In this document: positions 10,111-61,910 of the stretch, in pieces
Numbering within the stretch: position 1 is the first letter of the stretch
Layout: each line of letters begins with the position of its first letter
DNA from: Stegostoma tigrinum
Taxonomy: Eukaryota
Assembly (NCBI RefSeq): GCF_030684315.1
Contig: NC_081358.1
Location: forward strand, 55,748,942 to 55,812,941
Direction of reading: 5' to 3'
DNA length: 64,000 bases
The notes under the pieces: model-generated
What the model saw: the letters and a program-made list of their open reading frames with translations, nothing else
Told to the model about the DNA's origin: nothing
Databases searched by the model: none
Program-made: the position numbers and the translations under genes

Positions 10111-10883
10111 GTTTTAAATCATGGATCACAACATTTACAAGCAGTTACAGTCAAAAGACTGACAAAATATCAAAAACTACAGGCATGCAAAAATCTGAAA
10201 GAAATATTGGGGAAGTTTTTTGAATCCTTGGAATTGCTTTGGTCGAAGTAAGACTGAACAAACTGGTGATTTGAACTCTGCACGTCCTGAATGTAGTGTC
10301 ATACTATGTTGGAGAGCACATTGAGTTGGCTGAGAAGGCATCCTAAGCAGTTGCATTCCAAGTGAAAATCCCTTTTCCCTCAAAAATAGTACATGAGAAT
10401 TTTGCACCATTGGCTTCAACCAGTCGCCGCAGTTTCCCTGGCCACTTAGAGTCAATGTGCTGCAAATTGGTGACCCTAATAAAAAAGACTTATCCAACTG
10501 TGAGTTGCTGATTTTTTTTTGGTGCAATGATAAATAGAAATCTTAAATGGTCTCCCCTAAAAGATGAAAAATCAATTAAAAATTGAGTCAGGGATTGACA
10601 ATATTGTTTTAGGTAAAAGCATAGAATGATGTGAATGAAAGGACTAAGGATACAGATCAGCCAATGATTTGAGTGCATGACCACAAATTGAAATGGCATC
10701 TTCCTCCTATCCACTAATGGACAGATATCTGAACAGTGTTTTACTCATGCCAGAACTATGCTCACAAAATGCTCACATAATTGTGCAAGAAATACATATA
10801 AGCAGTTTGTGCATATTAATAATCTGCCATTTGAGGTACAGTGCACAGACATCCGCATATAAAACTGGGTTCACTTGGGATAA

Positions 10884-14420: not shown

Positions 14421-14457
14421 TCACAAGCTTTCAGAGCATAGCCCCTTTGTCAGGTGA
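14421..14457 (-). ncRNA. Hammerhead-like motif of family B (core CUGACAA, G8 mutated)
   Basis: tcac-CTGACAA-a-GGGGC tat GCTCT-GAAA-GCTT-gtga: stem I UCAC/GUGA and an AGCU palindrome. Second copy at 16644-16680 (+). Confidence 0.6.
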
Positions 14458-15415
14458 AGTGAGAAACATGCACACAGACACAGCATTTATGGACAGAGAG
14501 ATCAAGGGCATAGAGATCAAAAGATCAAACAAATGGTGTGAATGGAGTGTCGAATAGTAAGTCTGAGCAGGTAATCTGAAGTTTTAGATGACATGAGTAA
14601 AGTGTCAACAACTGAGTAACAAGCAAAGGGGTGGCCTATAATTTGATTAATTGAGGCAGAGAGATAAGTACAAAAGAACAAAAATAAGGTGGTGCTGGAG
14701 ACAAAGTAAATGACTGGAATAACATGACAAGTATAAGAGTTGCATGCCGAGGGTCTAACCAAAGTAATAAGTAATCAAAAACTGCACAAACTAATTAATG
14801 TAGAGAGATTATGACAATGTATCCAGGTGATGGTGACAATGCAGGACAGTAAGGAAGATGTTACAGATACAGAATTGTGGTGGTGTCACATACAATGTAA
14901 CATGAACCCAAGATCATGTTTGCGGCCGCCTTCATGGGTACAGAACATGGCTATCAGTTTCTGTTCAGTGATTCTGCTTTGTTGTGTATCTTGAAGTCCA
15001 TCTTGGAGGATGCTTACCTAAAGATTGGGGGCTGAATGCCCTTAACCACCGAAGTGTTTCCTGACTGTGAGGGACCATCCCTGTCTGGTAATTGTTGTGC
15101 AATGTCCATTCATCCATTGTCATAGTGTCTACATGCTCTTGCTAATATACCATGTCCTGGTAGACCCTGGCCTGCAGGGTATAAGATAAACAACATTGGC
15201 CATGTCACATGAGTATCTGCCATGTATGGGGTAGGTGGTGTTCCTATATGTGACGATAGTATCCATGTTGATGATCTAACATGTCTTGCAGAGGTTGCCA
15301 TGGCAGAGTTGTGGGGAGTTGTGGTCAATGTTCTCCTGAAGGCTGGATAGTTTGTTGTGAATGATGGTCTGTTTAAGGTTTTGTGGTTGTTTGAAGGTGA
15401 AAAGTCGAGGCTTGA

Positions 15416-15990
15416 TAAGACCATAAGACATATGAGTGGAAGTAAGGTCATTCGGCCCATCAAGTCCACTCTTCCATTTAAATCATGGCTGATGGGCATT
15501 TCAACTCCACTTCCCTGCACTCTCCCCGTAGCCCTTGATTCCTTGTGAGATCAAGAATTTGTCGATCACTGCCTTGAAGGCATCTAATGTCCTGGCCTCC
15601 ACTGCACTCCGTGGCAACAAATTCCACAAGCCCACCACTCTCTGGCTGAAGAAATGTCATCTCATTTCCGTTTTAAATTTACCCCGTCTAATTTTAAGGC
15701 TGTGCCCACGGGTCCTAGTCTCCCCGCCTGACGGAAACAACTTCCCAGCGTCCACCCCTTCTAAGCCATACATTATCTCGTAAGTTTCTATTAGATCTCC
15801 CCTCAACCTTCTAAACTCTAATGAGTACAATCCCAGGATCCTTAGCCATTCATCATATGTTAAACCTACCATTCCAGGGATCATTCGTGTGAATCTCCGC
15901 TGGACACGCTCCAGGGCTAGTATGTCCTTCCTGAGGTGTAGGGCCCAAAATTGGACACAGTATTCTAAATGGGGCCTAACTAGAGCTTTG
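15416..15990 (-). mobile_element. CR1-clade LINE 3' fragment inserted into the family B PLE
   Basis: ORF 15657-15884 GLTYDEWLRILGLYSLEFRRLRGDLIE..TRTRGHSLKIR; (cataaga) tail at ~15416-15430; PLE sequence resumes on both sides. Confidence 0.9.
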
Positions 15991-17344
15991 GTGATTTTGG
16001 TAAGATGCTCACCATCATTGATGACATGTTGAAGGCTGCAAAGGATATGGTGTAGTCTCTATGCTCTGGGGAAAAACTGGACGATGAAGGGCACTCTATC
16101 GGTCATATCCAATCGCTGCCTTCTGAGGAGGTCATTGCGGTGTTTTGCTGTGGTCACAACAGAACTGGCAATCGATGAGTTGAGCATCACATCCCTTTCT
16201 TATGAGAGCGTGGTTCAAAATTTTTAGAAGACTTTGGTTTCTTGTCGCGCTACATTTGACCCCACCACACTGCTCTGTATCTGTAAAATCTTCCTTACTG
16301 TCCTGTTTTGTACAGTTTTGGATTACTTATTATTTTGGTTAGACTGTTGGTATGTGACCCTTATACCTATCATGTTAATCCAGCCATTTGGTTTGTTTCT
16401 TGCACCACCTTATTTTTAATTGTTCGTTATTTTCTCTCTCTCGCTCTCATTTAATTGGATTATAGATCATCCCTTTACTTGTTATACAGTCATTGACACT
16501 TTACTCACACTATCTAACACTTCGAATCAACTTCAAGGACTTAATATTTGATAGGCCACTCACACCATTTGTATAGTCTTTTGATCTCTGTGCTCTTAGT
16601 CTTTCTGCCCATAAATTCTGTGTTTGTGCACTTCTCTCTCATTTCACCTGACAAAGGGGCTATGCTCTGAAAACCTGTGATTTCAAATAAACCTGTTGGA
16701 CTACAAATTGGTGTCACGTGTCCTCTGGCTTCATATTAAGTAGGACTTTGACGTTAACTATTACCTGATTTCTTCAGTTTTCTGTTTATTCTATGAAGAC
16801 CTGTAATACTTAGCTTTTTAGCTTTGTTTCTCTCTTTTACTACTTTGTACCTTAGTTTTTTATACCTAGGTAACTTTGCACCTAAGATGGTGATGGTGCT
16901 GTGCATGGTGACATTGTACAATTTTCTCTGTACTCCTTGTACATCTCTACTTGAGTTCATATGATAATAAAATCTAAGTCTAGATCTAAATCTCAATCAA
17001 AAGGCCATCCAGCAGTGTGCCCAGCGACAGAGTGAAGTCATAAACCATAACGTGGCACAAATGAAGGGAAAATAGCCAATTGGCAAACAGCATTGGTGAA
17101 TATTTCTAGTCTTTCAATTAAAGTCAGGTCTTCAGATGGTGGTTGTGTCTCTTGTCTTTTATTCTTCTAATTTTATTCAGAATTGCTTGTTAAATATATG
17201 ATTGATACTGGCATAAACAAAAAATTACAACAAAAAGTGTAAGGAGTGGGAGGTTCAAGTGATACTAGCATAATTTGTAAAAATACAATATAATAGTAGG
17301 CCAGATGCTGCATTGCTACTAATCCTACTTAGTTCATTGGTCAT

Positions 17345-18575
17345 CTTTTGCTGTGTTATAATATTTTCCAATCCTTGAACAAATGGGATAGATATAGGGG
17401 AATTGAATGGAAACTATTTGGATTTCCAAAAGCATTCAATAAAATACCATTTGTCGACCTACTTAGTAGAATACAATCACATGCTGTGAGGATAGTATAT
17501 TTACATGGATAGAGGCTTGGTGAACAAATAAAAATCAAAGAATTAGGAAAAGTGAGGCATTTTCAAGACGACAATCTATAACTAATGGTGTGCCACAGGG
17601 ATTAGCACTGAGGCAGCAATTATATACAATCTATATTGATGAGAGGAGTGAATGTATTGTCACCAAGTTTGTAGATGACACAAAATCACGTGAGAATGTA
17701 AAAAATAAGGATGCCACAAAAAGTCTGCAAATGGATACAGACTAATTGTGCAGACAAAAACTTTGCAGGTGGAGTATGATATGGGAAATGTGAGGTTGTG
17801 CACTTTGAATGGAAGAATAGAAGAGCTCAACATTATTTAAACTGAGAAAGGCTAAAGAAAGCTACAAAACAGAGGGATTTGCTCGTCTTCATGCAAAAAT
17901 GACAAAAAAACTAGCATTCAAGCTCAGCAGGAAATAGGGAAGGCAAATGGAATGTTGGCCTTTATTTCAAGGAGAATGGAATGTAAAAGCAAGAGGTTTT
18001 GCTAAAACTATACAAGGCACTATACAGGCCGTACTAAAATAATGTGAACAGTTTTGGGCTTCTTCTCAAAGAAAGGATATACTAGCATTGGAAACAGTCC
18101 AGAGAAGGTTCATTTGGCTGCTACCACAAATGGAGGGACTTTCTATGGAGACAGACTTTCTATGGGTAGATTGGGCCTGTACTCATTGGAGATGAGAAGA
18201 ATGAGAGGTGGCCGTATGAAACATATGAGTCTTTGGGGATTTGATATAATAGATGTTGAGAGATTATTTCCCCTTGTGAGAGTCTAGAATCAGAGAACAT
18301 AATTCCAGAGTGTAGAGCCACCCTTTAAAGACAGCGATGAGGGGGAATTTCTTCTTGCATAGGTTTTTGCAGCCGTGGAATTATGTACCACAGAGGGCTG
18401 TTGAGGCTGTGTCAGTGCATCTTTGCAACCTGAGACAGACAGATTTTTCAAACCAGTAAGGGAATCGAGGGTTATGGGAAAAAAAAACAGTAAAGTGGTT
18501 TTGAGGATTATCAGATCAGCCACGATCACATTGAAAGGTGAAACAGTTTTGGTGGGTTGAATGCCCTACTTCTGT
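17345..18575 (+). mobile_element. CR1-clade LINE, degenerate RT through 3' end
   Basis: YLDFQKAF (~17415), GVPQG (~17588), KFVDDTK (~17665), LGLYSLEMRRMRG (ORF 18054-18287), CR1-type 3' UTR. Confidence 0.85.
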
Positions 18576-28792: not shown

Positions 28793-31700
28793 AAAACTAT
28801 TCCATATGTATCAGTGATATTTTAAAAAATACATTTATCAAAGATGGTTGAGATAATAATGTGACTGGACTTTAGCAGTACCCTTCAAGAATTTTCACTG
28901 AAGTCAAAGTCAGCTGGGCAACCAATACATCATGTACATCTTGTTGGGCCTGGAATACTAACTACTGTGAAATAAACTGCCACAAGACATACTGCCTCCA
29001 GGGAAAACCCAAACACAAAAGAATTATGAATTAGCTCTGTAAGGAGATGTGATAATAACTCTCTACTTAACCTCTGAAATGAGCCACAGGCAGTCATGTA
29101 TCTACAAAGTAAATATTTGTCTCAATGGTAACTATTTTGGCCTCTACCCTTTTGAAGAAAGTTTGGCTATGGGCAAATTGGATAGAAAGCAACTGTTGCA
29201 CAGAGCATAGTGGATTCTGGAATACACTGCCTGGGACAGCAGTTGAGATGGGAAACCTCACAAACTTTAAAAGCTTGTGATGAACACCAAACAAGTCCTG
29301 ACACTCATGGCTATGGGCCTCCAGCTAGAAATTAGGATAGAGTAGCTTTGTCAGTGCAGATCTAATTGCAATAGGTTCTCTCCCACATTGTGTGATTCTA
29401 TGATTTGATCAAGTAGTTTTCTGATACACCCTTGTTGATTAAGGTTGCACCACTGATATTTGTGCAGAGCCCTTGAATCCAAGTGCACATTGAACTTAAC
29501 GGAATTTATACGTGAGAGGGTGGAAGAGACATTTGGCATGGCAAGAGGATTCTCATGGGTAGTGATGGTGGGATGAAGTGTCATGCATTCAAAGATACTT
29601 TCCTCAATCTTTAACTTAAAATAGAAAATCTCTGCTTATTTTATGTTACAAGTGCTCAGAGTAAAGAAAGGGACAAGTCTGTGTCTTCCTGAGATCATTT
29701 AAGTTTGAGATATTTCAATCATTTTCAAAATCTATTGTTTACATGAACTCATCTTCCTTTAAAACTTCCAATGTTTCTATGTAATTTTTCTCAAATTTCT
29801 TCCAGCTGAGTGATCACAATTTAATAATATGAACAATAATTTGTAATTTATTTATAAAGCCAATGCTGCAGTCCCAAATCAGAAGTCAGTGGCCATTTTA
29901 TGAGCAGACCTAACTCAATTGCAGCAGTCTACTTAAAACAGTGCTTCACATGATTATTCTCATAATGAGAAATTGCACATAAAGTGTGTTTTAATAATGA
30001 ATTTAAGATAAACAGGCATTTACTCACAGATAGAAGTAAGATGGCTGTGCCTGTTTCTCTTTGCACAATGTGTCTATTCTTTTATACCTTTGCCCTAGCA
30101 TAGAGGGGACCGCTGAAATTTGCTTACTCTGAGCATGTCTTGGGCTGACACTCATTCATTTAACAGCTCACATTATTTTGTGGATTACTTGGAAAGTCTA
30201 GTCAGACCAAAGAAGTCCTTAGTCCCCTGTCTGAGAAACACTACTTCTGCTAACTCAGATGTTATACTCGCCAGTTGTAATCAGTATGAAAATGGAAGTA
30301 ATGGACTTGAAGAGTGAGCATGACATGTAAGTGATGAACATGAAAGTTTGAATTCACTCCACAGAGTGTAGGAAACAGGAGCTAGGTTTGTTTCTTAAAA
30401 GATCACCTCTTGAGGGGGACTAAAGTTAAAACTTGCAAGTGGTGTCAGCCTTCAGTTAGCATGGAGATGACTTTCTGCTGCAACTAAGGCTCCTGAAGCC
30501 AATCTATGTGGTGAATCTACTTTGACTTGGGATAGATGAATCCTCAACTGGCAACAGAACAAATATTCAATGCTGTACATAATTTACAAAGCTTCTTTTT
30601 TATTTTGTTGAAAGAGTATACTGAAAATTCATACACATAGTCAATCATACTTCAGGATTGACGGTCACCTGACCTTCATAGATTGGAAATGATAATTTCC
30701 AAAAGAAAACTTGAAACTTTTGGCCTTGCACCCCTCAGAACTGGAATGCAAGAAAACTAAATTTTGAAAGGGAACAGCAATTTATACAACGTAGGATGAG
30801 AGTACTAATTAGTTCGCACAGAAATGCAGAAGGAACTATCAATCGTCTTGACTATTGACTTATGCCTTGTCAGTATTAGAGAATTTTTGGGAACCCAGTA
30901 AGTATAGAATATCCAGCCTCTGACTTCCTCTGGAGCACTAATTATTTGCTTGGTCTAGTTTTGTTGCTGGTCAGTGATGATCTAAGAATGTTGATGATAG
31001 GGTGGAATTGAGCAATGTTGTTGCCTGTGAGAATTAGTGTATGCTCTAAAGGAGTTGATTAGACTTTCTGTTGCTGGAGGTAGTCATTGACTAGTAGTTG
31101 CATAGCCAGATATAACTCTCTAATTGTCAAAGCAGAGCTTGGATGTTGTCCTGGTCTGCATATATGTGAGAATGAATTTCTTCATCTTTGAGAAATTATT
31201 AATGAGCTGAATCTCTGTTCAATCACCAGTAACCGTCACATAGAAGCCTTACAATGCTGAAGGACACCATTTGTCAATAATGCCGGCACCCAGCACTGTC
31301 TTTATGGTAAATTAATAGTTGTCTGGTTTTATCATTGAAAATTGAGCTTTCAAACTTTAACTTGATGTACACTGTGTCAAATTTAGCAATCTCTTCAAAA
31401 ACCCCCAGGTGCTGAAGGTCAACGGACTGTTTGCCTTTGATCAGCCTTGATTGATAGTTCATGCAGCTCATGAGTTGGGATAAATATATCGTGATCATAT
31501 AGCAATCAGAAGAGGAGAGAATCAGCAAAGTGCGATGAGTATTTTGCACATTTTTTGGATATCCAAACTGACATAGTAGTGACAGTTAACAATACAAAAG
31601 GAGTATGAGTTTCAGAGCTTAGGAGGCCTTACTTAATTCAAATATAATATAAGTTCATTAGCTGCTGTTTTAGTGTGTTGGTGGGCTTGTGGGCTACCCA

Positions 31701-32096
31701 GTAGAGCAAACAGCCAATGGGGAACTTCAAACCAGCGTCTACAGGAAAACAACACATACGGACCAAATACTGAACTACAGGAGCAACCATCGCAACACCC
31801 ACAAACGAAGCTGCATTAGAACATTATTCCAATGAGCCACCACACACTGCAGCACAGAGGAACTACGCAGAGCAGAGGAAAATCACCTATACAGCGTATT
31901 CAAAAAGAATGGGTACCCTATGAACACAGTCCGCCGATTCCTCAGCAATAAACCCAAACAAACAGACAAAACGGGCTCAGAAACCATAACCACTTTCACC
32001 TACATCAAAGACATTTCCGAAATGACTGCCAAACGACTCTGACCTCTTGGCATCAGGGTAGCCCACAAACCCATCAACACACTAAAACAGCAGCTA

Positions 32097-32558
32097 ATGA
32101 ACTTAAAAGACCCTATACAGACAATAAACAAAACAAATGTCATCTACAAAATACCTTGCAAGAACTGTGACAAACACTACGTTGGACAAACTGGCAGAAA
32201 GATAGCCACCAGGATACATGAACATCAACTAGCCGCAAAACGACATGACCCACTATCACTCATATCCTTACATACAGATGAGGAAGGACACCACTTTGAT
32301 TGGGACAACACATCCATCCTAGGACAAGCCAAACAGAGACGCGCACGAGAATTCCTAGAAGCATGGCATTCCAACCGGAACTCCATCAGCAAACACATTG
32401 GCTCCAAATCAATCTACCATCCCCTGAGAAAAAGAACAGGAAATGACATCACCAACGCAGGAAATGACATTACCAACCCAAGGAAACCTAACCAGATAAA
32501 TAGAAAGCGGGACATAACACCAGCGCTTCGTCGGAGGCTCACTGATGATGTTACCTAG
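32097..32558 (+). pseudogene. GIY-YIG endonuclease domain of family C PLE (fragment of a truncated polyprotein)
   Basis: NVIYKIPCKNCDKHYVGQTGRKIATRIHEH..H..EEGHHFDW..REFLEAWHS; no Neptune-type Cys linker before the domain. Confidence 0.88.
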
Positions 32559-32578
32559 AATGGTGACGAATCGTCTGA
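32539..32578 (+). ncRNA. Minimal hammerhead-like motif of family C (GAAA mutated to GAAT)
   Basis: tca-CTGATGA-t-GTTACC tagaat GGTGAC-GAAT-CGTC-tga: stem I UCA/UGA, 6-bp stem II, GUC triplet. Confidence 0.7.
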
Positions 32579-33842
32579 AAACTAACCTTCTAGCTCAGCG
32601 AGCAAACTCACATCCAGAACCTCAACCTGAGCTACAAATCTTCTCAAAACTCACCCAACAAGGTGTTAGATGCTCTATGTACAAAATGGCGGACAAATCC
32701 AACTCAGCCAGTGACCACGTGCTTAACCTCCTCTTGATTATCTGTGAAATGTTTGAAAGAATCATCAATGATGCTATCAGACAGCACTTGCAAAGGAAGA
32801 ACCTGCTTGCTGTCACTCTGTTTGGGTTTTGTTAGGGCCATTTAACTACTTATCTCAACAGAGGCCTGGGAATTAATGAGATTACTAAATACTAATAGTA
32901 AACAGTCATGTTCTAATATGTATTTATGGGCCATTTGGCGTGGTTGGGAGGTGTAATCTAGGGCAGGTGTGGTACTCAGTGTTCAGGGAGTATTTGGGTG
33001 ATTGGGTGTGTAGTTTGGATAGTTTAGGGGTAGTCAATGTGTTGGAGTGAGTGGTTGGGAATATGTTCTAGGATTACCTACAAGTCAGATTAGTTTTATT
33101 CATCTAAACTTTTCTGGAGAACTGTGTGTTCGGTAATGCTGTTGCTATGTTAGGAATACAGATCTACTTGCAATAATTGAAGATGTGGTGCCGGCAACTC
33201 TATGAAACAATGAAGGGATGATCAATATCCATAAATTCAGGACATAGTCAAGAAGAACTTGCCTGGTTCTGAGATCAAGGATACTACAAAAATGTTTGCT
33301 TTAACAGGGCTGTGTGAAGGAGATAAATGAGATTGTAGGTTTTTGGATCTTACAGTGGAGCGAGTCATTGTTTCAAAAGGAATAATGTCCTCTGCAAGGG
33401 AAATTTGAGACAAAGTGACCTTCAGGTTAAAGGGACTTTCAGATCTCACACTGTCAAGACAGATTCAAAGTCAATTATCTTCAAACAGTAAATCTACCAA
33501 AAACTTGCATGTCTGAACAGAACACATTCTGGGACAGCAGTGAAACATCCAGAGCACCAGAATTTGGCAATGCAGTCCAGATAAATTGTGCATAATAAAA
33601 TGAGAAGTCAGTCATGTTTCACAGTTCCTCATCAGGAATAGTACAGAGGTAACTGCTAAACAAAATGATAAAAGTGATAAATGATAAATGAAAAATGATA
33701 AAACCAGATCATCCCCAAGGGACTACAGTCTACATTTCAGCCTTCCCAATTCGGCCCCAACCGTGACCACCTCTACACCCAGAATATTCAGACCCTTCAG
33801 AAGCGTTTCTCCCTGCGAGTCCTGAAACGGACACTCGCAGCC

Positions 33843-36728
33843 ATGCGCCGGCACCTCCAGGCACTGAAATCCAGCCTGACCCAGCTCAGAGCCTCCCTCT
33901 CCCAGACCTGCAAAGGACCTCTGCTGTTTTTAATCCTCCGCAGGATCCACAGACTGAACACCCAGTTCCACTCAGCTTTACTGGACACCAAAAATCGTAA
34001 GTACAACAAACTCACTGGCCCCTGCCACCCACCAGAGGATTCCTGCACCTCCCAAATCCCGAGTCTGTCCCTGCCCCTCCCCCACCATGCACCCGCCACC
34101 ATTGACCATGAGGACACGGCCGGAGAACCCACCGATGACGTCACGTCCGCCTCCGCCAGCCACACCACTTCCAGGACCGCTGCTGCAGTCATCACCTCCA
34201 CTTCCAGTTACAACACCTCACACACCACCCTCCCCGCAGCTGCTGCCGCCCACCCCGATGCTCCAACTGCCCTGCCCACGGCCGACGCCGACGGAACCCC
34301 GCCCACGCCCGACACAGACAGAACCCCGCCCACAGCCGACGACCTCATCGCTCCGCCCACAACCTCCACAGCCGGCAACCCCAGAGAAGACAGCCACACT
34401 GAGCCCTGCCGCATCTTCACCATCCCCCCAGACCTCCCACTGACTGAGGACGAACAGTCAGTCCTAAGGAAGTGGCTCACCTTTGTCCCCCTACAACCAC
34501 ACATCAACGAATACCAGTCACGATTGGACATAGAGCAGTTTTTCCGCCGTCTTCGCCTCCATGCCTACTTCTTCAACCGGGAGCTTAACCCTCCCTCCAC
34601 TGACCCCTTCAACCGCTTCCAACACAAGTCCTCCTCCTGGACACCACCTCCAGGCCTCCTACCCTCCCTCGATCTCTTCATCTCCAACTGCCATCGAGAC
34701 ATTAACCACCTCAACCTCTCCACCCCTCTCACCCACTCCAACCTCTCCCCCGCAGAACGGGCAGCCCTCAGTTACCTCCGCTCCAACCCCAACCTCACCA
34801 TCAAACCCGCAGACAAGGGTGGCGCAGTGGTAGTATGGCGCACTGACCTCTACATCGCCGAGGCCAGACGCCAACTCTCCGATACCACCTCCTACCGCCC
34901 CCTCGATCATGACCCCACACCCGAGCACCAAACCATCATCTCCAACACCATTCATGATCTCATCACATCAGGGGACCTCCCACCCACAGCCTCCAACCTC
35001 ATTGTTCCCCAACCCCGCACGGCCCGTTTCTATCTCCTTCCCAAAATCCACAAACCTGCCTGCCCTGGTCGACACATCGTCTCAGCCTGCTCCTGCCCCA
35101 CCGAACTCATCTCCACCTATCTGGACTCCATTTTCTCCCCTTTGGTCCAGGAACTCCCTACCTACGTCCGTGACACCACCCACACCCTCCAACTCCTCCA
35201 GGACTTCCAATTCCCTGGCCCCCAACACCTCATTTTCACCATAGACGTCCAGTCCCTATGCACCTGCATTCCGCATGCAGATGGCCTCAAGGCCCTCCGC
35301 TTCTTCCTGTCCCGCAGGCCCGACCAGTCCCCCTCCACCGACACCCTCATCCGCCTAGCCGAACTCGTCCTCAACCTCAACAACTTCTCTTTTGACACCT
35401 CCCACTTCCTACAGACAAAGGGGGAGGCCATGGGCACCCGCATGGGCCCCAGCTATGCCTGCCTCTTTGTAGGTTACGTGGAACAGTCCCTCTTCCACAC
35501 CTACACAGGCCCCAAACCCCACCTCTTCCTCCGTTACATTGATGACTGTATCGGCGCCGCCTCTTGCTCCCCAGAGGAGCTCGAACAGTTCATCCACTTC
35601 ACCAACACCTTCCACCCCAACCTTCAGTTCACCTGGGCCATCTCCAACACATCCCTCACCTTCCTGGTCCTCTCAGTCTCCATCTCAGGCAACCAGCTTG
35701 TAACTGATGTCCATTTCAAGCCCACCGACTCCCACAGCTACCTAGAATACACCTCCTCCCACCCACCCTCCTGCAAAAATTCCATCCCCTATTCCCAATT
35801 CCTCCGCCTCCGCCGCATCTGCTCCCACGATAAGACATTCCACTCCCGCACATCCCAGATGACCAAGTTCTTCAAGGACTGCAACTTTTCCCCCACAGTG
35901 ATCGAGAATGCCCTTGACTGCGTCTCCCGCATTTCCCACAACATATCCCTCACACCCCGCCCCTGCCACAACCGCCCAAAGAGGATCCCCCTCGCTCTCA
36001 CACACCACCGCACCAACCTCCGGATACAATGCATCATCCTCCGACACTTCCGCCATCTACAATCCGACCCCACCACCCAAGACATTTTTCCAACCCCACC
36101 CCTGTCTGCTTTCCGGAGAGACCACTCTCTCCGTGACTCCCTTGTTCGCTCCACACTGCCCTCCAACCCCACCACACCCGGCACCTTCCCCTGCAACCGC
36201 AGGAAATGCTACACTTGCCCCCACACCTCCTCCCTCACCCCTATCCCAGGCCCCAAGATGACATTCCACATTAAGCAGAGGTTCACCTGCACATCTGCCA
36301 ATGTGGTATACTGCATCCACTGTACCCGGTGTGGCTTCCTCCACATTGGGGAAACCAAGCGGAGGCTTGGAGACCGCTTTGCAGAACACCTCCGCTCAGT
36401 TTGCAACAAACAACTGCACCTCCCAGTCGCAAACCATTTCCACTCCCCCTCCCATTCTTTAGATGACATGTCCATCATGGGCCTCCTGCAGTGCCACAAT
36501 GATGCCACCCGTAGGTTGCAGGAACAGCAACTCATATTCCGCCTGGGAACCCTGCAGCCTAATGGTATCAATGTGGACTTCACTGGTTTCAAAATCTCTC
36601 CTTCCCCAACTGCATCCCTAAACCAGCCCAGTTCGTCCCCTCCCCCCACTGCACCACACAACCAGCCCAGCTCTTCCCCTCCACCCACTGCATCCCAAAA
36701 CCAGTCCAACATGTCTCTGCCTCCCTAA
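33843..36728 (+). CDS. PLE polyprotein: reverse transcriptase plus Cys-rich linker plus GIY-YIG endonuclease (961 aa from the first Met; frame is open ~47 codons further upstream)
   Basis: KPADKGGAVV, FYLLPKIHK, DVQSL, AMGTRMGPSYACLF, RYIDD, HFKPTD, CNRRKCYTC, NVVYCIHC..HIGETKRRLGDRFAEH, RRLQEQQLI, PNGIN. Confidence 0.93.
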   Translation: MRRHLQALKSSLTQLRASLSQTCKGPLLFLILRRIHRLNTQFHSALLDTKNRKYNKLTGPCHPPEDSCTSQIPSLSLPLPHHAPATIDHEDTAGEPTDDVTSASASHTTSRTAAAVITSTSSYNTSHTTLPAAAAAHPDAPTALPTADADGTPPTPDTDRTPPTADDLIAPPTTSTAGNPREDSHTEPCRIFTIPPDLPLTEDEQSVLRKWLTFVPLQPHINEYQSRLDIEQFFRRLRLHAYFFNRELNPPSTDPFNRFQHKSSSWTPPPGLLPSLDLFISNCHRDINHLNLSTPLTHSNLSPAERAALSYLRSNPNLTIKPADKGGAVVVWRTDLYIAEARRQLSDTTSYRPLDHDPTPEHQTIISNTIHDLITSGDLPPTASNLIVPQPRTARFYLLPKIHKPACPGRHIVSACSCPTELISTYLDSIFSPLVQELPTYVRDTTHTLQLLQDFQFPGPQHLIFTIDVQSLCTCIPHADGLKALRFFLSRRPDQSPSTDTLIRLAELVLNLNNFSFDTSHFLQTKGEAMGTRMGPSYACLFVGYVEQSLFHTYTGPKPHLFLRYIDDCIGAASCSPEELEQFIHFTNTFHPNLQFTWAISNTSLTFLVLSVSISGNQLVTDVHFKPTDSHSYLEYTSSHPPSCKNSIPYSQFLRLRRICSHDKTFHSRTSQMTKFFKDCNFSPTVIENALDCVSRISHNISLTPRPCHNRPKRIPLALTHHRTNLRIQCIILRHFRHLQSDPTTQDIFPTPPLSAFRRDHSLRDSLVRSTLPSNPTTPGTFPCNRRKCYTCPHTSSLTPIPGPKMTFHIKQRFTCTSANVVYCIHCTRCGFLHIGETKRRLGDRFAEHLRSVCNKQLHLPVANHFHSPSHSLDDMSIMGLLQCHNDATRRLQEQQLIFRLGTLQPNGINVDFTGFKISPSPTASLNQPSSSPPPTAPHNQPSSSPPPTASQNQSNMSLPP
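36603..36725 (+). repeat. 39-bp in-frame tandem repeat (~3 units) at the PLE ORF C-terminus
   Basis: Encodes PTASLNQPSSSPP-PTAPHNQPSSSPP-PTASQNQ; also 3 units in the 6.6-kb copy, 1 unit in the 11.6- and 42.8-kb copies. Confidence 0.85.
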
Positions 36729-36950
36729 CCCGTTCTTCCTCTCACCCATCCCTTCCTCCCACCCCAAGCCGCACCCCCATCTACCTACTAACCTCATCCC
36801 ACCTCCTTGACCTGTCCGTCTTCCCTGGACTGACCTATCCCCTCCCTACCTCCCCACCTATACTCTCTCCACCTATCTTCTTTACTCTCCATCTTCGGTC
36901 CGCCTCCCCCTCTCTTCCTATTTATTCCAGAACCCTCACCCCATCCCCCT

Positions 36951-36982
36951 CTCTGATGAAGGGTCTAGGCCCAAAACGTCAG
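36951..36982 (+). ncRNA. Minimal hammerhead-like motif of family A (G12 mutated to A)
   Basis: ct-CTGATGA-a-GGGTCTAGGCCC-AAAA-CGTC-ag; sibling copies have GAAA here. Confidence 0.7.
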
Positions 36983-39900
36983 CTTTTGTGCTCCTGAGAT
37001 GCTGCTGGGCCTGCTGTGTTCATCCAGCCTCACATTTTATTATCTATGATAAAAGTGATACATAGCTTTTAATGTTAAAGGCAACTAAGTTAATTTGCAA
37101 ATCGTGGATGATTCCAGTGACCTTACTGGGAAACTTATTTCTTTCATTCTCCATGCAATCGTTGCTGAGGTTTGAGTAGTTGTCATGAGTGAAGTAGGTT
37201 GAAATGACATTGTATGATAGCATAATTTTTATAATTGAATCAGCTCTTGATTGATCCAAGTTCTCTAACCAACTGCATGAAAGACTACAGTCAGCCCATT
37301 CCAATGTCTTATGCTAAAACAAAGATACAAAGTGAGACAGGGATAATGAGAAGATTTGAAAGAGGCTCCGATGGGCTGCTTAAATTGTGAGCAAGTCTAC
37401 TGAATAAAGAATGACATAATTTCTCACCTCCTTTCATCCAAAAGGCATTCATTCGCAGAATGATTCTACATCTGACACCTACTAATAATCAGGCAGCTTT
37501 CTGTTCCTGAGTAACATTATATTCAAAACAGAGTGCAATTTCTGGTACCAATACCATTTGTTTTTTGTCTTTTGTCCGCAGACTACTTTTAGTGTTCTTG
37601 GAGCTCGAAAATAGTGTTTGTAGCATGTGTGCATACTTGTCTGCAGCAATATGACATTGATGCAGATAGTACAATGCATGCAGTTAATGCCCATCAGCGA
37701 TGTGCAGACCACATAGATCATATCATCTGACTTAATACCAGTGTTAGATTTTGGAGCTCAACATTCTAATTGAGAGCCACTCTTAACCTTGTTTAGTTGC
37801 ACATGCTCTAAGCAGCAGGAGGACTCCTCTCCAGTGTTGTTTAAAGAGATTGTCAACTAAATACAGCAAGTCGTTGGTCAATTTCTCCTGGCTGCTGATA
37901 GAACTGTCCTCATATCTTGCACAGACACAGCTATCTCGTGTAGGGTCTAAGATCTCTCTCTTGACATATTCATTTAGATTGGTGTTTTCTTTATCATTGA
38001 TGTCAGAGTCCTGTGATCAATTATTTCACCATGATTTACATGAGCCTCATTATATCTTAAGGATTTCCTCTCCTAAATAACTTCAACAAATCATGGGGGT
38101 ATTTATGTTAATTGGTAACAGTTTTCATGTTCACCATTACAGAGACAGCTTTATGCTCCAGATTTATTGCTTGAATTTAAATTCTATCATTTGCCAAAGA
38201 TGGATTTGAACCCGTGTCCTAAGACCATTATTGCGTATCTTTGGATTAATGGTCCAATGACATTACCAATGTCTTCCCTATATACTAGCAATATATTGCC
38301 ATGTGAAAACTATTCTTGATCAGTACCTGAGTGCTAACTGTGAAACTTCATGTTTGAATAGCTTTAAATTATGGCAAGCACTGTACAATTGCATTCTGAA
38401 ACCAAATTTCTAACTAAAAATGTTTTCTTAGCACAGCTGCCACTTAGTATCTATGTTCGTCCTTTATCCCCCCTCAAGAAAACTTAAAAAATATCCCCTT
38501 TTATATATACCTTAACTATTTTTCCTTTAATCCAGTGAAGATCTTATCAGATAAATGGGGAATTCATATTTTATCAGACATGGAGTGGCTTCCCCTTCAT
38601 TAAGCTGAGTGATCATCAACTCTCATTTATTCTGCTTTGGAGAAAGTGACAGCCAGCCTGGAAAAGGCTTTTTCCTCCGATTAACTGAATGTGCCCTGCA
38701 ATATAATCTTGCCTATTTGTTCTGCGGCAATTACTGACAACTGAGATGACTTCCACCATGCACAAGATAATTTAAGCCAGCTAGTACTGTTTCATATATA
38801 CTTTCCCAGGGCAGGAAAGAGCTGCTGCAAATTGCAGTATAATTCAATAAAGGAAAAGTGATCTGCTAGGTTTGCAAAACAATGTTGCTTAATTTCCCAA
38901 GAAAGTACAGCTTTGTTTTTTGTTTCAAGAAGGTGAATAACTTTATAAACATTCCCATTTGTGTTTCATTTGTGTGCCTGAGCTTTTGCTGAGCCAACGA
39001 AAACAGTTGAGGGTAATTAGAGTTTCCTGTGCAAGTGACTCAATGAGTGTTTGGGGTCAGTTAGCTCCCATGATGCCAACAGCAACCTATTTGCACAGCG
39101 ACAAACAAACAAACAAACAGTCTGTGGAGACAAGTAGTACACTTAGATCACTGTGTGCAAATAACGCTGGCACACAATAAAATTGCAGACAGCTCATAGA
39201 ATGGGTGCTAGTTTCACACTAAAGTGATTGCTGTACATAGCCAGAGCTATCCATGCTGGGTCATATGCAAGTTTTAATGGTTTTGTTCTGTCTCAACTGG
39301 AACAATTACACTCCAGGCCAAATGACAATGGCAGGTCATAGTACACAGATGCATCTCTCCAAACATCCACCTTTCCAAAGTGTCTGCTATAAATGGTATG
39401 TTTGTAATTATTCATGGCAGATCTCTGGAATATGCTATTCTTGGAGTGGTATTTCTGCTATGGAATGTCATTCAAATTGTGCAAATACATTGGGTGCAAA
39501 TGCAACTTGTTGTTCCATATTTTATCTGGCAAGATAACTTCATTGCTGCCATCATAATGTGTCAGCAGTGGTGTTATCATCGCTAGTCGTTTGATGCAAG
39601 TAAAAATGCCTCTTTTTCTGTATCTCAGTGCCACTAAACATCTTGTGACCTGGTGTGAAAGTTTACACAAATTAGCAAGAACTTTACTGGGTAGTTTGAA
39701 AATCCAAATATCATTACGTTGCTTTTATATCTGCTTTTTGCTGCATCTCTGCGACAAATCTCACCTTGTCAAGATGAGAGCACACTCTTATATATTGGCT
39801 TCAATCATTTTCAGTTGCATCTATATCTTCAAGTTTTACTTTGTGTTTGTTACGTGAGCTATTTCTAGTAGCCTCACTAGATTCTGATCGTGGTTCTGCG

Positions 39901-41805: not shown

Positions 41806-42448
41806 GACATATAACTTAATGGGCTGAAATTCATTTTGGTCAATATCACAAAATGACTGTCAATGAATCAATAACCTACCCGAATAGCATCATAATCATG
41901 GGAAGGATATTTAAGTGGCTTTGCTATTGCTATTTTCAACTGACTGTCAAAGAAAAAAAATTATCACTCCTGTACCAAATGCAGCTCCATATATACACAA
42001 GTTGCATAAGGTAATGACTCTGAAAGCATTAATGCTGAAAACTATATGAAGCTTCACCCAACTCCTGGGATACAGCGGTAAATGTTGTGAATAAAAGGAC
42101 AAGTTTTGGCTATTGATATTACTCTTTTGTTGAGTGAATTTCTCCCTTGTTTCTTCAAATAGATGCATTTGGGACAGGACAGACTTGGAATTTTGAATGG
42201 AAAAATTGCCAACAGTTAAGTGGTTAATTTTGAAGAAGTCTACCACCTGTTAAATCTGTTCAGACGGTAATTGAACACATTGACAATGTTTACCTGACTG
42301 TTGCAACTTTGATTTTTATCCTGCAATAAGCTACGTCTTGTTTAAGACTCTTTTCTTGTTTGAGAAATGGTCTCTTCTGAGACCATTTAAATCTCAGTCA
42401 AAAGTTCAGGCTAGTAATAACTACCTATCCAACCACATGTTGGCAGTG

Positions 42449-45302
42449 ATAACAAAGTGTGGAGCTGGATGAACACAGCAGGCCAAGCAGCATCTCAGGA
42501 GCACAAAAGCTGACGTTTCGGGCCTAGACCCATCAGAGAGGGGGATGGGGTGAGGGTTCTGGAATAAATGAGGAGAGAGGGGGAGGTGGACCGAAGATGG
42601 AGAGAAAAGAAGATAGGTGGAGAGGAGAGTATAGGTGGGGAGATAGGGAGGGGATAGGTCAGTCCAGGGAAGACGGACAGGTCAAGGAGGTGGGATAAGG
42701 TTAGTAGGTAGGAAATGGAGGTGCAGCTTGGGGTGGGAAGAAGGGATGGGTGAGAGGAAGAACGGGTTAGGGAGGCAGAGACAGGCTGGGCTGGTTTTGG
42801 GATGCAGTGGGGGGAGGGGAGATTTTGAAGCTGGTGAAGTCCACATTGATACCATTGGGCTGCAGGGTTCCCAAGCGGAATATGAGTTGCTGTTCTTGCA
42901 ACCTTCGGGTGGCATCCTTGTGGCACTGCAGGAGGCCCATGATGGACATGTCGTCTAAAGAATGGGAGGGGGAGTTAAAATGGTTCGCGACTGGGAGGTG
43001 CAGTTGTTTATTGCGAACCGAGCGGAGGTGTTCTGCAAAGAGGCCCCCAAGCCTCCGCTTGGTTTCCCCAATGTAGAGGAAGCCACACCGGGTACAATGG
43101 ATACAGTATACCACATTGGCAGATGTGCAGGTGAACATCTGCTTAATATGGAAAGTCATCTTGGGGCCTGGGATGGTGGTGAGGGAGGAGGTGTGGGGGC
43201 AAGTGTAGCACTTCCTGTGGTTGCAGGGGAAGGTGGCGGGTGTGGTGGGGTTGGAGGGCAGTGTGGAGCGAACAAGGGAGTCACGGAGAGAGTGGTCTCT
43301 CTGGAAGGCAGACAAGGGTGGAGATGGAAAAATGTCTTGTGTGGTAGGGTCGGATTGTAGATGGCGGAAGTGTCGGAGGATAATGCGTTGTATCCGGAGG
43401 TTGGTGGGGTGGTGTGTGAGAATGAGGGGAGTCCTCTTTGGGCGGTTGTGGCGGGGGCAGGGTGTGAGGGATGTGTTGTGGGAAATTCGGGAGACGCAGT
43501 CAAGGGCGTTCTCGACCACTGTGGGGGGAAAGTTGCGGTCCTTGAAGAACTTGGACATCTGGGATATGCGGGAGTGGAATGCCTCATCCTGGGAGCAGAT
43601 GCGGCGGAGACGGAGGAATTAAGAATAGGGGATGGAATTTTTGCAGGAGGGTGGGTTTGAGGATGTGTATTCTAGGTAGCTGTGGGAGTTGGTAGGCTTG
43701 AAATGAACATCAGTTACAAGCTGGTTGCCTGAGATGGAGACTCAGAGGTCCAGGAAGGTGAGGAATGTGTTGGAGACGTCCCAGGTGAACTTGAGGTTGG
43801 GATGGAAGGTGTTGGTGAAGTGGATGAACTGTTTGAGCTCCTCTGGGGAGCAAGAGGCGGCGCTGATACAGTCATCAATGTAACAGAGGAAGAGGTGGTG
43901 TTTGGGGCCTGTGTAGGTGCGGAAGAAGGACTGTTCCACGTAACCTACAAAGAGGCAGGCATAGCTGGGGCCCATGCGGGTGCCCATGGCCACCCCCTTT
44001 GTCTGTAGGAAGTGGGAGGAATCGAAAGAGAAGTTGTTGAGGGTGAGGACGAGTTCGGCTAGGCGGATGTGGGTGTCGGTGGAGGGGGATTGGTCAGGCC
44101 TGCGGGACAGGAAGAAGCGGAGGGCCTTGAGGCCATCTGCATGAGCAATACAGGTGTATAGGGACTGGATGTCCATGATGAAAATGAGGTGTTGGAGGCC
44201 AGGGAATTGGAAGTCCTGGAGGAGGTGGAGGGCGTGGGTGGTGTCACGGATGTAGGTAGAGAGTTCCTGGACCAAAGGGGAGAAAATAGAGTCCAGATAG
44301 GTGGAGATGAGTTCGGTGGGCAGGAACAGGCTGAGACAATGGGTCGACCAGGGCAGGCAGGTTTGTGGATTTTGGGAAGGAGATAGAAATGGGCTGTACG
44401 GGGTTGGGGAACAATGAGGTTGGAGGCTGTGGGTGGGAGGTCCCCTGAGGTGATGAGGTCATAAATGGTGTTGGAGATGATGGTTTGGTACTCGGGGATG
44501 GGGTCATGATCAAGGGGGTGGCCGGAGGAGGTGTCGTAGAGTTGCCGTTTGGCCTCGGTGATGTAGAGGTCAGTGCGCCATACTACCAGTGCGCCACCCT
44601 TGTCTGCGGGTTTGATGGTGAGGTTGGGGTTGGAGCGGAGGGAGCGGAGGGCTGCCCGTTCTGCGGGGGAGAGGTTGGAGTGGGTGAAAGGGGTGGAGAG
44701 GTTGAGGTGGTTAATGTCTCGACGGCAGTTGGAGATGAAGAGGTCGATGGAGGGTAGTAGGCCTGGAGGTGGTGTCCACGAGGAAGACTTGTGTTGGAGG
44801 CAGGTGAAGGGGTCAGTGGAGGGAGGGTTAGGCTCCTGGTTGAAGTAGTAAGCGTGGAGGTGAAGGCGGCGGAAAAACTGCTGTATGTCCAAACGTGACT
44901 GGTATTCATTGATGTGTGGTTGTAGGGGGACAAAGGTGAGCCCCTTGCTTGGGACTGACCATTCATCCTCAGTCAGTGGGAGGTCTGCGGGGATGGTGAA
45001 GATTCGGCAGGGCTCAGTGTGGCTGTCTACTCTGGGGTTGCTGGCTGTGGAGGTTATGCGTCAGAGATAATGGGAACCGCAGATGCTGGAGAATCCGAGA
45101 TAACAAAGTGTGGAGCTGGATGAACACAACAGGCCAAGCAGCTTCTCAGGAGCACAAAAGCTGACGTTTCGGGCCTAGACCCTTCATCAGAGAGGGGGAT
45201 GGGGTCAGGGTTCTGGAATAAATAGGGAGAGATGGGGAGGTGGACCGAAGATGGAGAGAAAAGAAGATAGGTGGACCGAAGATGGAGACAAAAGAAGATA
45301 GG
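42449..45302 (-). mobile_element. Penelope-like element, family A, partial tandem: truncated upstream pLTR with tail (45061-45302), 5'-truncated ORF, 3' pLTR
   Basis: ORFs 44059-44892 (KPADKGG, PKIHK, GRPIVS), 43742-44275 (GVAMG, CYIDD) and 42767-43558 (GIY-YIG) are broken by a frameshift and stops. Candidate TSD tggcagtg at 42441-42448 and 45303-45310. Confidence 0.95.
45161..45192 (-). ncRNA. Minimal type I hammerhead ribozyme motif, core intact
   Basis: ct-CTGATGA-a-GGGTCTAGGCCC-GAAA-CGTC-ag on the minus strand; the partner motif at ~42512-42536 has a 3-nt deletion in the core. Confidence 0.78.
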
Positions 45303-54171: not shown

Positions 54172-54280
54172 TCAGTTCTGAAAGAGAGTCATATTGAACT
54201 TGAAACATTAACTCTGTTTCTCTCTACATAGATGGCACCAGAACTGTTGAGTTTCTCCAGAAATTTCTGATTTTATTCTA
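54172..54280 (+). mobile_element. Family D-like pLTR fragment with decayed hammerhead motif
   Basis: cagttCTGAAAG..gagtcatattgaactt GAAA CATT aactctg..gatggcaccagaactgttgagtttctccag, homologous to 2272-2400. Confidence 0.55.
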
Positions 54281-54299: not shown

Positions 54300-55725
54300 G
54301 GCCTTATAGAAATATTGAAATTTAGAGGCAAGTGTAGAGGCATTTAGCCCCTCAAGTTTGCTCCACCGCCAGTTGAAGTCATGATTGTTTTGTGACAAAA
54401 CTCCATGTGGCTGTCTCTGCTTCATATCTTCTGATACCTCTAGCTAACAAAAAAAAACTATCAAATCTTAGTGTTAAGTTAACAATAGGCCCAGCCATTG
54501 ATAGAAGAGAGGTCCAAACCTTACTGCCCTGTGCATGAAGTAATGTCTCCTAATGTCACTCTTAAAAAGTGTGACTCTAGTTCTTAGGCCATGCTCCTAC
54601 ACATTGATTGTCCAACAAGCAATAATAGGTTCTACTCTATCCAGCCTGGCCAATATTTTGAAAGCTACAATCAAGTACCACCTCCTTTAACTTAAACTTC
54701 AAAGTTATTTTTCATACATTCACAGAATGTAGATATTGCTGACTAGACCAGTTTTGCAGGAAATAAAATCTTACTTTGTGGAAACTTCTTCTTAATTTAT
54801 TCCATTCAGTCCAGGTATCCTGATCAATTTGTGCTATGCTCCCTGTAAGGCTGATATAACCTTCTTAGTGAGTGGTACCCAGAACTGTTCACACTGTTCA
54901 AAGTGTAATCAAGCTAGAACTTTGTAAAGATTATGCACAGTTCTCATTCCTCGTGAGAGAAAATGGGAACTGCAGATGCTAGAGAATTCAAGATAACAAA
55001 GTGTGAAGCTGGATGAACACAGCAGGCCAAGCAGCATCTTAGGAGTGCAAAAGCTGATGTTTCGTGCTTAGACCCTTCATCAGAGAGGTTTCTGGTAACT
55101 TTATTTTGGATATAATGGCCAGGATTCCATTAGATATTTTGATTATTTCTGTACCTGTTTACAACATTTTAGTATTCTATGCACCTGAACCTTCAAGTCC
55201 ATTTGGACTCTCATTGTGTTTAGTATTTCAAAGTTTATGCTGAAAATTAAAGTTCATTGTGGATGGGTAGCATATTAGTAGAGACAGAAATTGGCTGGAT
55301 AGCAGAAAACAGAGAGTACATGTAGTTGAGTCTTAGACTGATCAGCAAGATGCAATGAATGTAGTTCGATAGGATTCTGTGTTGGGGCCTCAACTTTTTG
55401 CAACAACATCAATGACTTGTGCTACACTAAATTTGCAGGTGTGACGATGCCAGGCAGGTAAGTATGTTACAAAGAATAGAGTAGGAGGTTGCAGATAGTT
55501 ATAGTTAAGTTAAGTGAGTAGGAGAACACTGGCAGATGAAGCATACTGTGAGAAAAGAAGAAAGTGGTCACTTTGGCCCAAAGAATGAAAAAGCAAGGTA
55601 ATACTTAAATGGAGAATGATCGCAGAATTCTGGGGCACAGAAGGAATTAATTAAAGTGCATGAGTCATAAAATGTTAGTATACAGGTACAACACTTAATC
55701 AAGAAGGCTAATAGGATGTCAATGA
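54300..55725. mobile_element. Degenerate CR1-clade LINE pieces (minus ~54300-55230, plus ~55250-55725)
   Basis: Reversed CR1 3' UTR at ~54330-54450; plus-strand *DSVLGPQLF..INDL..KFAG remnants of RT motifs at ~55370-55440. Confidence 0.6.
54956..55087 (-). mobile_element. Solo family A pLTR end (hammerhead through tail) inserted in a CR1 relic
   Basis: gagagaaaatgggaactgcagatgct..gacccttcatcagagag; starts just 5' of CTGATGA on the minus strand. Confidence 0.88.
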
Positions 55726-58544: not shown

Positions 58545-58638
58545 CAAACAAAAACAAAATTTACTGGAGAACTCAGCAGTATCTATGGAAAGAAATCAGA
58601 GTTAACATTTCAAGCCAGTGACCTTTCTTCAGAACAGC
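58545..58638 (-). mobile_element. Family D-like pLTR fragment with hammerhead motif
   Basis: Minus strand gtt-CTGAAGA-aaggtcactggctt-GAAA-TGTT-aactctg..gatactgctgagttctccag. Confidence 0.6.
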
Positions 58639-60269: not shown

Positions 60270-60890
60270 TTATTAAACATGGAAAATTCTTATGCGAATT
60301 GACAGGTTAGATGCACAAATGTTGTTTCCCCTTATGAGAAATTTTAACATCAGAGGTTGTAGTCATAGAGTAAATAGTTACACATTTAGGACGGAGATGA
60401 GGAGGAACTTCTTGTCTCAAAGGTTTGTGAATCCATGTAGTTTTGTTTTACTGTGAAGGGCTCTTGCGGCTGTATCATTAAATATATTCAAGACAAAGAC
60501 AGGCAGATTTTTAATCACGGGTTATAGAAAAAAGTCAGGAAAGTAGAGTTGAGGATTATGAGATCAATCATAATTTCATTGAATGGCAGAGCAGATTTAA
60601 TGGACTGAATGGAGAGAGAGATAATGGGAACTACAGATGCTGGAGCATCTGAGATAACAAAGTGTGAAGCTGGATGAACACAGCAGGCCAAGCAGCATCT
60701 TAGGAGCACAAAAGCTGACATTTCAGGTCTCGACCCTTCATCAGAGGCTCTGATGAAGGGTCTAGGCCCGAAATGTTAGCTTTTGTGTTCCTAAGATGCT
60801 GCTTGGCCTGCTGTGTTCATCCAGCTTCACACTTTGTTATCTCTTGAGGGACTGAATGACCTACTTTGCTCCTATGTCATATGGTCCTAC
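60270..60890 (+). mobile_element. CR1-clade LINE 3' end interrupted by a palindromic PLE mini-element
   Basis: tttaggacggagatgaggaggaacttcttgtctcaaagg (FRTEMRRNFLSQR); the UTR resumes after 60848 as ggactgaatgacctactttgctcctatgtcatatggtcct. Confidence 0.85.
60612..60848. mobile_element. Palindromic PLE-pLTR mini-element with two oppositely oriented hammerhead motifs
   Basis: 96-bp arms 60651-60746 and 60748-60843 around a single central G (tcatcagag-g-ctctgatga); tail only on the left; TSD ggactgaatg at 60602-60611 and 60849-60858. Confidence 0.92.
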
Positions 60891-60934
60891 ATCTGCAACC
60901 TACTGGAAAAAGTTTTTCTTCCATTTGCAGCATG

Positions 60935-61910
60935 TGACATTTCCAGTAATTGTCACGGTCATCACAGCTTTTGACTCTGGCTCTATCCAGGGGCCTGCTG
61001 ATTATATCTGTTGGATTGCATCTCTGAAGTCACAGATGCATTGTTTTCCAATGCTGCCAATGATATCCATTTTACCATCGATAGCCCAGTCAGAGAATAA
61101 AGGCTATCGGTTTCATTGTAGTGTCTGTAATCACACAGTGTCAGGGCACATACCAATCCAATCAGATCAACCTGGAGTCTTCACCAAACACAATGGAATC
61201 GTTTTCAATAATATTCAGCTGGCTACCACAAAATGATCATGAATGCTTATGTTTAGATCCCTAGGGAGCCAGCGGAATTCATTCATTCTCTGACAAACAC
61301 AATCACCAACACAATAAGAGACAAGAATTCTGAAGAACCAGGTCTGAATCTCTGTCCTGATGGCATCTCTTTTTATGGAGGTAAACATCAGCATGAGTCA
61401 CTGAAATATCGCAGACTAGAGATGGATCACTCCAATCTTCCTCCATGGCTGCACACTGCCTCTGCAAATGCTGACAGTTTCATACATATTTCCTATTGCT
61501 GCTCTACAAGATCCCTTACCATAAATGACTCCAAAAGCTCAGCAGCTATGCCCAACTGAGCTGAACTTGGAATGTCCTGTCCCGTTTGATAGTACAGATA
61601 GAAATTACCCTGTTCACATGTGATGTGTCTGTATTCCCACAGTGTCAGGGCACACACCAATCCAATCAGATCAACCTGGAGTCTTCACCAAACACAACAA
61701 AATTGTTTCCAATAATATTCAGCTGGCCACCACAAACATATCATGAATGTTTAAGTTTAGGTCCTCGGGAGCTGCCGGAATACTTTCATTCTCTGACAAA
61801 CATAATCACCAACACAATAATAGATGTGCAACTCATCATGTGCCAATCAGATATTTTGTCTGTTGTACCCATCTGGGTTCCAAGCGTAATGTATTTTATT
61901 CTGGAGAGTG
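60935..61910 (+). pseudogene. Decayed PIF/Harbinger (HARBI1-like) DDE transposase with internal duplication
   Basis: Pieces FPVIVTVITAFDSGSIQG, CISEVTDALFSNAANDIHF, HIPIQSDQPGVFTKHNGIVFNNIQL, RSLGSQRNSFIL and IIDVQLIMCQSDILSVV..YFILES follow the Harbinger order LPV..GSFQ / EVTDALF / HV.I..F.NRKG.HS.NVQL / PGS.HDSFIL. Many frameshifts. Confidence 0.7.
61133..61822 (+). repeat. ~185-bp direct duplication (~61133-61320 and ~61638-61822)
   Basis: cacagtgtcagggcaca.accaatccaatcagatcaacctggagtcttcaccaaacacaa..aatcaccaacacaataa present twice. Confidence 0.92.

Follow-up and report, generated by a model that had tools for sequence, protein, structure and literature searches.

A palindrome with a hammerhead core on each strand is probably a very short inverted PLE insertion from a shark

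Among insertions of Penelope-like elements (PLEs), 5′-truncated copies inverted head to head are reported as the commonest form, with TSDs of 8–10 bp (PMC3846280), and a one-sided tail of 30–40 bp combined with an inverted truncated copy is presented as the standard arrangement (PMC8557442, PMC8969392). In the anole, the PLE protein is described as nicking and extending both target strands and as initiating reverse transcription from two internal positions, which bound the tail; the hammerhead is protein-assisted, and its cleavage is dispensable for TPRT (PMC11167929). Single minimal PLE hammerheads are reported not to cleave and to cleave weakly as tandem dimers, and in Schistosoma Cercyon dual minimal hammerheads lie on opposite strands, 100–700 bp apart (Cervera and de la Pena 2014, PMC4209133). 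Non-LTR retrozymes are described as ORF-less, pLTR-derived elements with type I hammerheads and long TSDs (PMC7229834; Li et al. 2026, 10.64898/2026.07.22.740005), built as direct tandems whose same-strand hammerheads give circles (Cervera and de la Pena 2020). Here we set against these systems a palindromic insertion at 60.6 kb in a 64-kb stretch of DNA, the whole of which is referred to below as the window.

The insertion comprises 237 bp enclosed by a 10-bp exact direct repeat (60602–60611 and 60849–60858, + strand). A shared 10-mer was found in 3 of ~20,000 random pairs of 20-nt flanks from the window. The insertion breaks an older repeat and, because the second copy of that host repeat (18195–18563) continues across the target site, we regard the direct repeat as a real TSD. 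From the left TSD copy, four extra bases that reflect GA slippage (60612–60615) lead to a 35-nt PLE tail (60616–60650, − strand), which is followed by the left arm (60651–60746, − strand), a single central G that is absent from the native pLTR (60747, + strand), the right arm (60748–60843, + strand) and five further extra bases (60844–60848). The arms are 96 nt each and 95% complementary, with five mismatches and 1 nt between them, and both begin 2 nt upstream of CUGAUGA; the fold has a z-score of −23.5, and 0 of 200 shuffles were equally stable. A CUGAUGA..GAAA core begins at 60750 on the + strand (60750–60777) and at 60744 on the − strand (60717–60744). An earlier note on this DNA had described the insertion, TSD, arms, central G and paired cores, all of which are borne out; it had missed that the element as a whole is asymmetric, the tail being present on the left arm only. 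An assembly artefact was rejected as the main reading, as 84–87% of sampled words from 60400–61050 (two samples) were present in four runs, a figure for the interval as a whole rather than for the junction; one of the two samples may be the source. All five mismatches between the arms (60706–60788) fall within the 41 nt nearest the centre, and two left-arm mismatches make the middle of helix II fully Watson–Crick, which could mean a different template RNA. Just to the right of the palindrome lies a 200-bp direct duplication, 88% identical (61121–61321 and 61625–61824).

The arms match nine further arms in the window at 89–95%, or 91–95% when compared with the ends of those arms, together forming what we call family A. 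One of these nine terminates a 3.3-kb copy (33690–37045, + strand, 15-bp TSD) in which a 1008-codon open frame (33702–36728) is followed by a tailless pLTR without GAAA. The frame carries an RT motif, YIDD (residue 612), a Cys motif in the linker (residue 831) and a GIY-YIG-type nuclease motif (residue 881). Its best named relatives among 1417 matches are from Stegostoma (92%), Rhincodon (86%) and Chiloscyllium (74%); three relatives that were scanned (51–74% identical) all matched RVT_1, and two of them matched GIY-YIG. A Pfam profile search of the ORF itself and a PDB sequence search with it each returned no match. Because a matching arm ends a copy with RT and GIY-YIG motifs, and because relatives of the ORF match both domains, we identify the arms from sequence as pLTR ends of an endonuclease-positive (EN+) PLE of a carpet-shark-like genome, in agreement with the earlier note, which had favoured a PLE-derived origin over a DNA-transposon MITE. 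The Cys-rich RT–EN linker points to Neptune or Nematis, both of which are described as having a Zn-finger-like RT–EN linker (Craig et al. 2021, PMC8557442). The frame is near intact, and the copy lacks an upstream pLTR.

Compared with published EN+ PLE insertions (PMC3846280, PMC8557442), the 60.6-kb element is alike in its inverted truncated copy, one-sided tail, variable TSD, palindromic junction and pLTR hammerhead. It combines a source with RT and C-terminal GIY-YIG, head-to-head truncation, a one-sided 35-nt tail and a TSD whose length varies among copies; it differs in that its arms are cut to the last 96 and 131 nt of the pLTR, the ORF is lost and the junction lies at the 5′ edge of the hammerhead. 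The palindrome is thus a very short case of a known PLE insertion structure. The two cores also resemble the minimal hammerheads of metazoan PLEs as described in PMC4209133, sharing the extra base between A9 and G10.1, the absence of a helix III of their own, remnants of the palindromic 15.2–16.2 positions, a short helix I and pairing on opposite strands. They differ from the Cercyon pairs in lying 5 nt rather than 100–700 bp apart, in belonging to a shark family and in that both copies are decayed. A search of the literature, covering main texts of largely open-access papers, found no short palindromic PLE stubs in sharks.

Other insertions in the window follow the same pattern. Six of the 11 family A arms end with the tail and five end ~35 nt earlier, and in all three inverted family A insertions (8277–8489, 10883–12021 and 60616–60843) a tailed arm is paired with a tailless one. 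TSDs of 8–15 bp flank seven of the eight insertions examined (the 33-kb one was judged by eye), and none was found at the eighth, 54955–55094. The second short inverted insertion (8277–8489) has a 4-nt microhomology at its junction (8407–8410) and carries a single core, on the − strand, its + arm beginning downstream of CUGAUGA; the longer one (10883–12021) joins a tailed arm of 486 nt to a tailless arm of 661 nt and has a core on each strand. A further short inverted insertion (2218–2413, 11-bp TSD) belongs to a second PLE-like family, family B, which is ~70% alike to family A; its inverted piece is ~50 nt and its only core is on the + arm. Of the two places that the earlier note had listed as related structures (2218–2413 and 8278–8492), neither is therefore a double hammerhead. 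Three family B ends (2270–2413, 54173–54278 and 58547–58635) share sequence only from ~5–7 nt upstream of the core, a putative boundary like the family A hot spot discussed below; the window has no long family B copy.

The three inverted family A copies have three different centres: a 4-nt microhomology that removes one CUGAUGA, a junction 368–568 nt upstream, and the symmetric G. No second element with the 60.6-kb centre occurs in the 64-kb window. Across 81 shared columns, the 60.6-kb arms differ from one another at five and the 8.3-kb arms at three, and between the two elements there are 8–10 differences; because each arm resembles its own partner more than it does the arms of the other element, the two short palindromes appear, in this small sample, to derive from different source subfamilies. 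The resemblance within a pair is not exclusive. The 8.3-kb arms are as close to the long 37-kb copy (three differences) as to one another, copy 10 differs from the left 60.6-kb arm at five columns, the same number that separates this arm from its partner, and the arms of 10883–12021, which differ at 8 of ~71 columns, are no closer than unrelated copies.

A survey of public contigs places these arm ends in a genome-wide setting. Contigs from 4 of 23 runs (X1, X2, X12 and X15, from three organisms) were aligned to positions 45050–45272 of a native tailed arm (45063–45301, − strand), which heads a direct partial tandem (42448–45301). On this reference the sense strand is the − strand, CUGAUGA starts at 45190 and the cleavage site separates 45163 from 45162. 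In X1, where 136,831 contigs were aligned, the loose ends that lead the 24 of 892 rows listed are the tailed positions 45061 and 45063, with 983 and 646 contigs, and the tailless positions 45097 and 45098, with 926 and 620; the former pair corresponds to the outer end of the left 60.6-kb arm and the latter to that of the right. Within the same 24 rows, a 5′ boundary at 45191, 1 nt upstream of CUGAUGA, is marked by 759 contigs with long, unlike flanks. The same boundary is found in 765 contigs of X2 and in 163 of X12, which is from another organism; it is not among the six loose-end rows listed for X15. Summed contig depth is ~four-fold lower upstream of 45191 in all four runs, a measure that does not equal copy number and is affected by private mismatches of the reference arm upstream of this point. 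Within the window, 5 of the 11 family A arms begin within 11 nt of CUGAUGA.

From these sequences, the commonest 5′ boundary of family A appears to be the 5′ edge of the hammerhead, 1–6 nt upstream of CUGAUGA, and not the cleavage site. The range is given because the loose consensus fits a subfamily that begins a few bases further up, and such a subfamily may account for part of the 45191 count. Eight of the 12 best junction rows (of 128) lie at 45188–45194, and all eight begin with C on the + strand, that is, with a G before the sense 5′ end; these eight rows represent six distinct junctions, and the kind of joint is unstated. Behind 45191 the loose-end consensus begins with A rather than C, so that the cap base is not in the majority there. 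In L1 and SVA, an untemplated 5′ G has been ascribed to copying of the cap (PMC3287187), and the boundary and extra G in family A likewise suggest run-off of reverse transcription at a capped 5′ end. A literature search found no 5′ hot spot at a hammerhead edge, a point on which the supplements of PMC4209133 and PMC11167929 may bear. In 3 of the 12 junction rows listed (of 128), the sense side starts exactly at the cleavage site, 45162, which hints weakly at self-cleavage of some templates.

The joints in the 15 rows listed, of 55, are of mixed kinds. Judged by piece length, which sets their orientation, head-to-head joints have unequal arms and 2–6 contigs each; those listed (45092/45194, 45106/45191 and probably 45117/45182, with 3–6 contigs each) are heterogeneous. 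The symmetric joint is not among these 15 of 55 rows, nor among the 12 of 128 junction rows and the 24 of 892 loose-end rows listed, which is evidence in neither direction; contigs assembled from word graphs collapse palindromes, and some joints went uncounted. The commonest inverted joints listed are tail to tail, linking the tailed end (45061–45063) to the opposite-strand tailless end (45098–45100) with 16–39 contigs in each row of the two runs from organism A; published work describes head to head as the usual form. Direct tandems also occur: a 94-nt pLTR unit (45191 to 45098) is repeated head to tail in 22–23 contigs, and there is a tandem of a ~41-nt hammerhead-only unit (45192 to 45152/45153), in which the extra G would extend helix I. 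Both are possible retrozyme seeds. Scans for the sequence pattern gave 0 and 0 hits in metagenome contigs, 0 in viral contigs and 0 in prokaryote genomes.

We are highly confident that the 60.6-kb palindrome is a de novo inverted PLE stub, formed either by two-sided priming or by fold-back. As to the route, our preference, held with somewhat better than even confidence, is for a minimal inverted shark PLE insertion that arose in one event by two-sided TPRT. The GIY-YIG nuclease would nick both target strands ~10 bp apart, and the RT would prime once at each of two internal start sites separated by 35 nt. Both cDNAs would then halt at the 5′ edge of the hammerhead, probably at the end of a capped RNA just upstream of CUGAUGA, with stalling of the RT at structure about equally likely. 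The two cDNA ends would be joined, one of them retaining a cap-copied base, and the central G at 60747, which matches the recurrent extra base in contig junctions, is possibly this reverse-transcribed cap base. Consistent with such a scheme, one arm stops at the tailed end of the family, the other at the tailless end, and both start at the 5′ hot spot; recurrent two-sided priming, one of the two options raised in the earlier note, is the one favoured here. The scheme also agrees with work on the anole element Poseidon PAc (Frangieh et al. 2024, PMC11167929), in which two RT starts downstream of the hammerhead delimit the tail and both strands are nicked and extended. Family A differs from Poseidon PAc in its Cys-rich RT–EN linker of Neptune/Nematis type, and neither a 5′ boundary hot spot nor an inverted product appears in the main text of PMC11167929.

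Several observations weigh against this scheme. Its cap step draws on six junctions, and the 5′ end would itself be read from genomic copies; the 8277–8489 junction fits fold-back well; and two-sided priming has to accommodate the arms of 10883–12021, which resemble one another no more than unrelated copies do. In D. virilis the start site is placed in the pLTR, 46 nt ahead of an intron that ends at the hammerhead (PMC2377424, PMC4209133). A start at the hammerhead edge would thus be specific to the family, because the D. virilis start lies well upstream of both intron and hammerhead.

The main alternative, which we consider a real but lesser possibility, is that a single cDNA stopped at the hammerhead edge and then folded back to copy itself, or self-primed on an antisense template, after which the nuclease cut the second arm short of the tail; the product would again be a de novo dead end. 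Palindromic inverted junctions have been read as self-priming by Arkhipova et al. 2013 (PMC3846280), and the tail has been ascribed to nuclease resolution by Craig et al. 2021 (PMC8557442). The microhomology at the 8277–8489 junction could be used in this way, and three minority variants are common to both 60.6-kb arms. At 60747, however, the loop would be 1 nt and microhomology is absent, and fold-back from such a loop would by our reasoning be impossible without several untemplated bases. The second arm, moreover, ends where single tailless insertions with their own TSD end (33690–37045), as a second priming predicts, and the tail equals the span between the two RT start sites described in vitro (PMC11167929).

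Far less probable, in our judgment, is that the symmetric palindrome constitutes a non-autonomous family whose members the PLE RT copies in full, the template being a rod-like RNA in which both polarities carry a functional hammerhead. Its near-perfect symmetry and the core on both strands invite such an interpretation, and non-autonomous pLTR derivatives, the retrozymes, are described (10.64898/2026.07.22.740005). The junction also gives the + core (60750–60777) a helix I of 8 bp compared with 2 bp in the native pLTR, which could be a hint of selection, and folding predictions for an RNA that starts ~10 nt before this core put the penalty for the hammerhead fold at only 0.9 kcal/mol. An RNA starting near the centre carries one arm only, however, and could not copy the palindrome. 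When the entire element is transcribed by read-through, the antisense arm comes first, placing an antisense copy upstream of each core on the same molecule; there, the hammerhead-compatible fold is predicted to cost 43.6 (+) or 43.5 (−) kcal/mol, and the mean unpaired probability of CUGAUGA is 0.001. Each strand has one core without a same-strand partner, whereas minimal PLE hammerheads are reported to be inactive as single motifs and to need tandem dimers (PMC4209133). Compared with a minimal type I hammerhead, core and helix II are present and the 15.2–16.2 palindrome used for dimers has decayed in both arms. C15.2 and C17 are changed to U on the + strand; on the − strand, helix I is broken at its third pair and 10.1–11.1 is a G-U wobble. 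The helix III self-dimer, at −3.1 kcal/mol in the native form, is predicted at +1.2 and +0.2 kcal/mol in the two arms. Rfam hammerhead models find no match in the palindrome, and two weak matches to MIR9486 (38 bits, where the gathering score is 100) are taken as generic hairpin matches. In our preferred scheme the palindrome is predicted to be a dead end without two-way ribozyme activity, the hammerheads being carried along with the pLTR.

The genomic evidence is also unfavourable to a palindrome family. Both outer ends lie at RT start sites, of which copying from read-through RNA would fix only one; the lack of a second copy of the centre in 64 kb, the three centres among three inverted copies and the arm variants argue against a single family, and the head-to-head contig joints (among 15 of 55 rows) are heterogeneous. 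The novel, self-propagating ambisense ribozyme system envisaged in the earlier note thus finds no support, the arrangement being the usual PLE insertion form and opposite-strand hammerhead pairs having been described since 2014 (PMC4209133). Nor can identical centres serve, as had been suggested, to diagnose propagation, because the 5′ hot spot would rebuild near-identical centres de novo. A hybrid history, to which we give slightly less credence still, would have the stub made first by capped run-off and since turned into a family of its own, with a viroid-like rod RNA, bearing one hammerhead per polarity, that the PLE protein opens and copies in full, and with the central G kept because it completes helix I.

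That the element is a genuine MITE, mobilised by a DNA transposase, can be practically dismissed: the element is short and ORF-less with inverted arms and a TSD, but the inverted repeat stops short of the left terminus at the unpaired 35-nt tail, TSD length varies from 8 to 15 bp across copies, and the arms correspond to the 3′ end of an element whose ORF encodes an RT and not a transposase. Membership among the non-LTR retrozymes was likewise rejected, as each strand of the palindrome has a single core and the pair is inverted, in contrast to the two or more same-strand hammerheads, directly repeated, that define a retrozyme.

What is new here is that the commonest 5′ boundary of family A lies directly before CUGAUGA and in many cases has an additional G. 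If boundaries do concentrate at the edge of the hammerhead and carry a G copied from the cap, then the start of the PLE transcript can be mapped from genomic copies, which would represent a run-off product resembling a strong stop. If true, run-off would account in a single step for solo pLTRs, for short tandems (retrozyme seeds) and for short palindromes, and it would bear on the formation of PLE tandem and inverted structures, which Craig et al. 2021 (PMC8557442) call undefined. PLE stubs of this kind resemble MITEs or miRNA hairpins, which calls for caution in annotation. Two further sequences in the window are related. One is an inverted insertion of another hammerhead-bearing family (14411–16720), with arms of ~380 nt that are 79% alike and of which one is ~33 nt longer at its outer end. 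The other is a third PLE-like fragment (31650–31699 and 32043–32650), which has a GIY-YIG-type frame, a hammerhead-like core at 32542 and, upstream, a 50-nt inverted internal piece.
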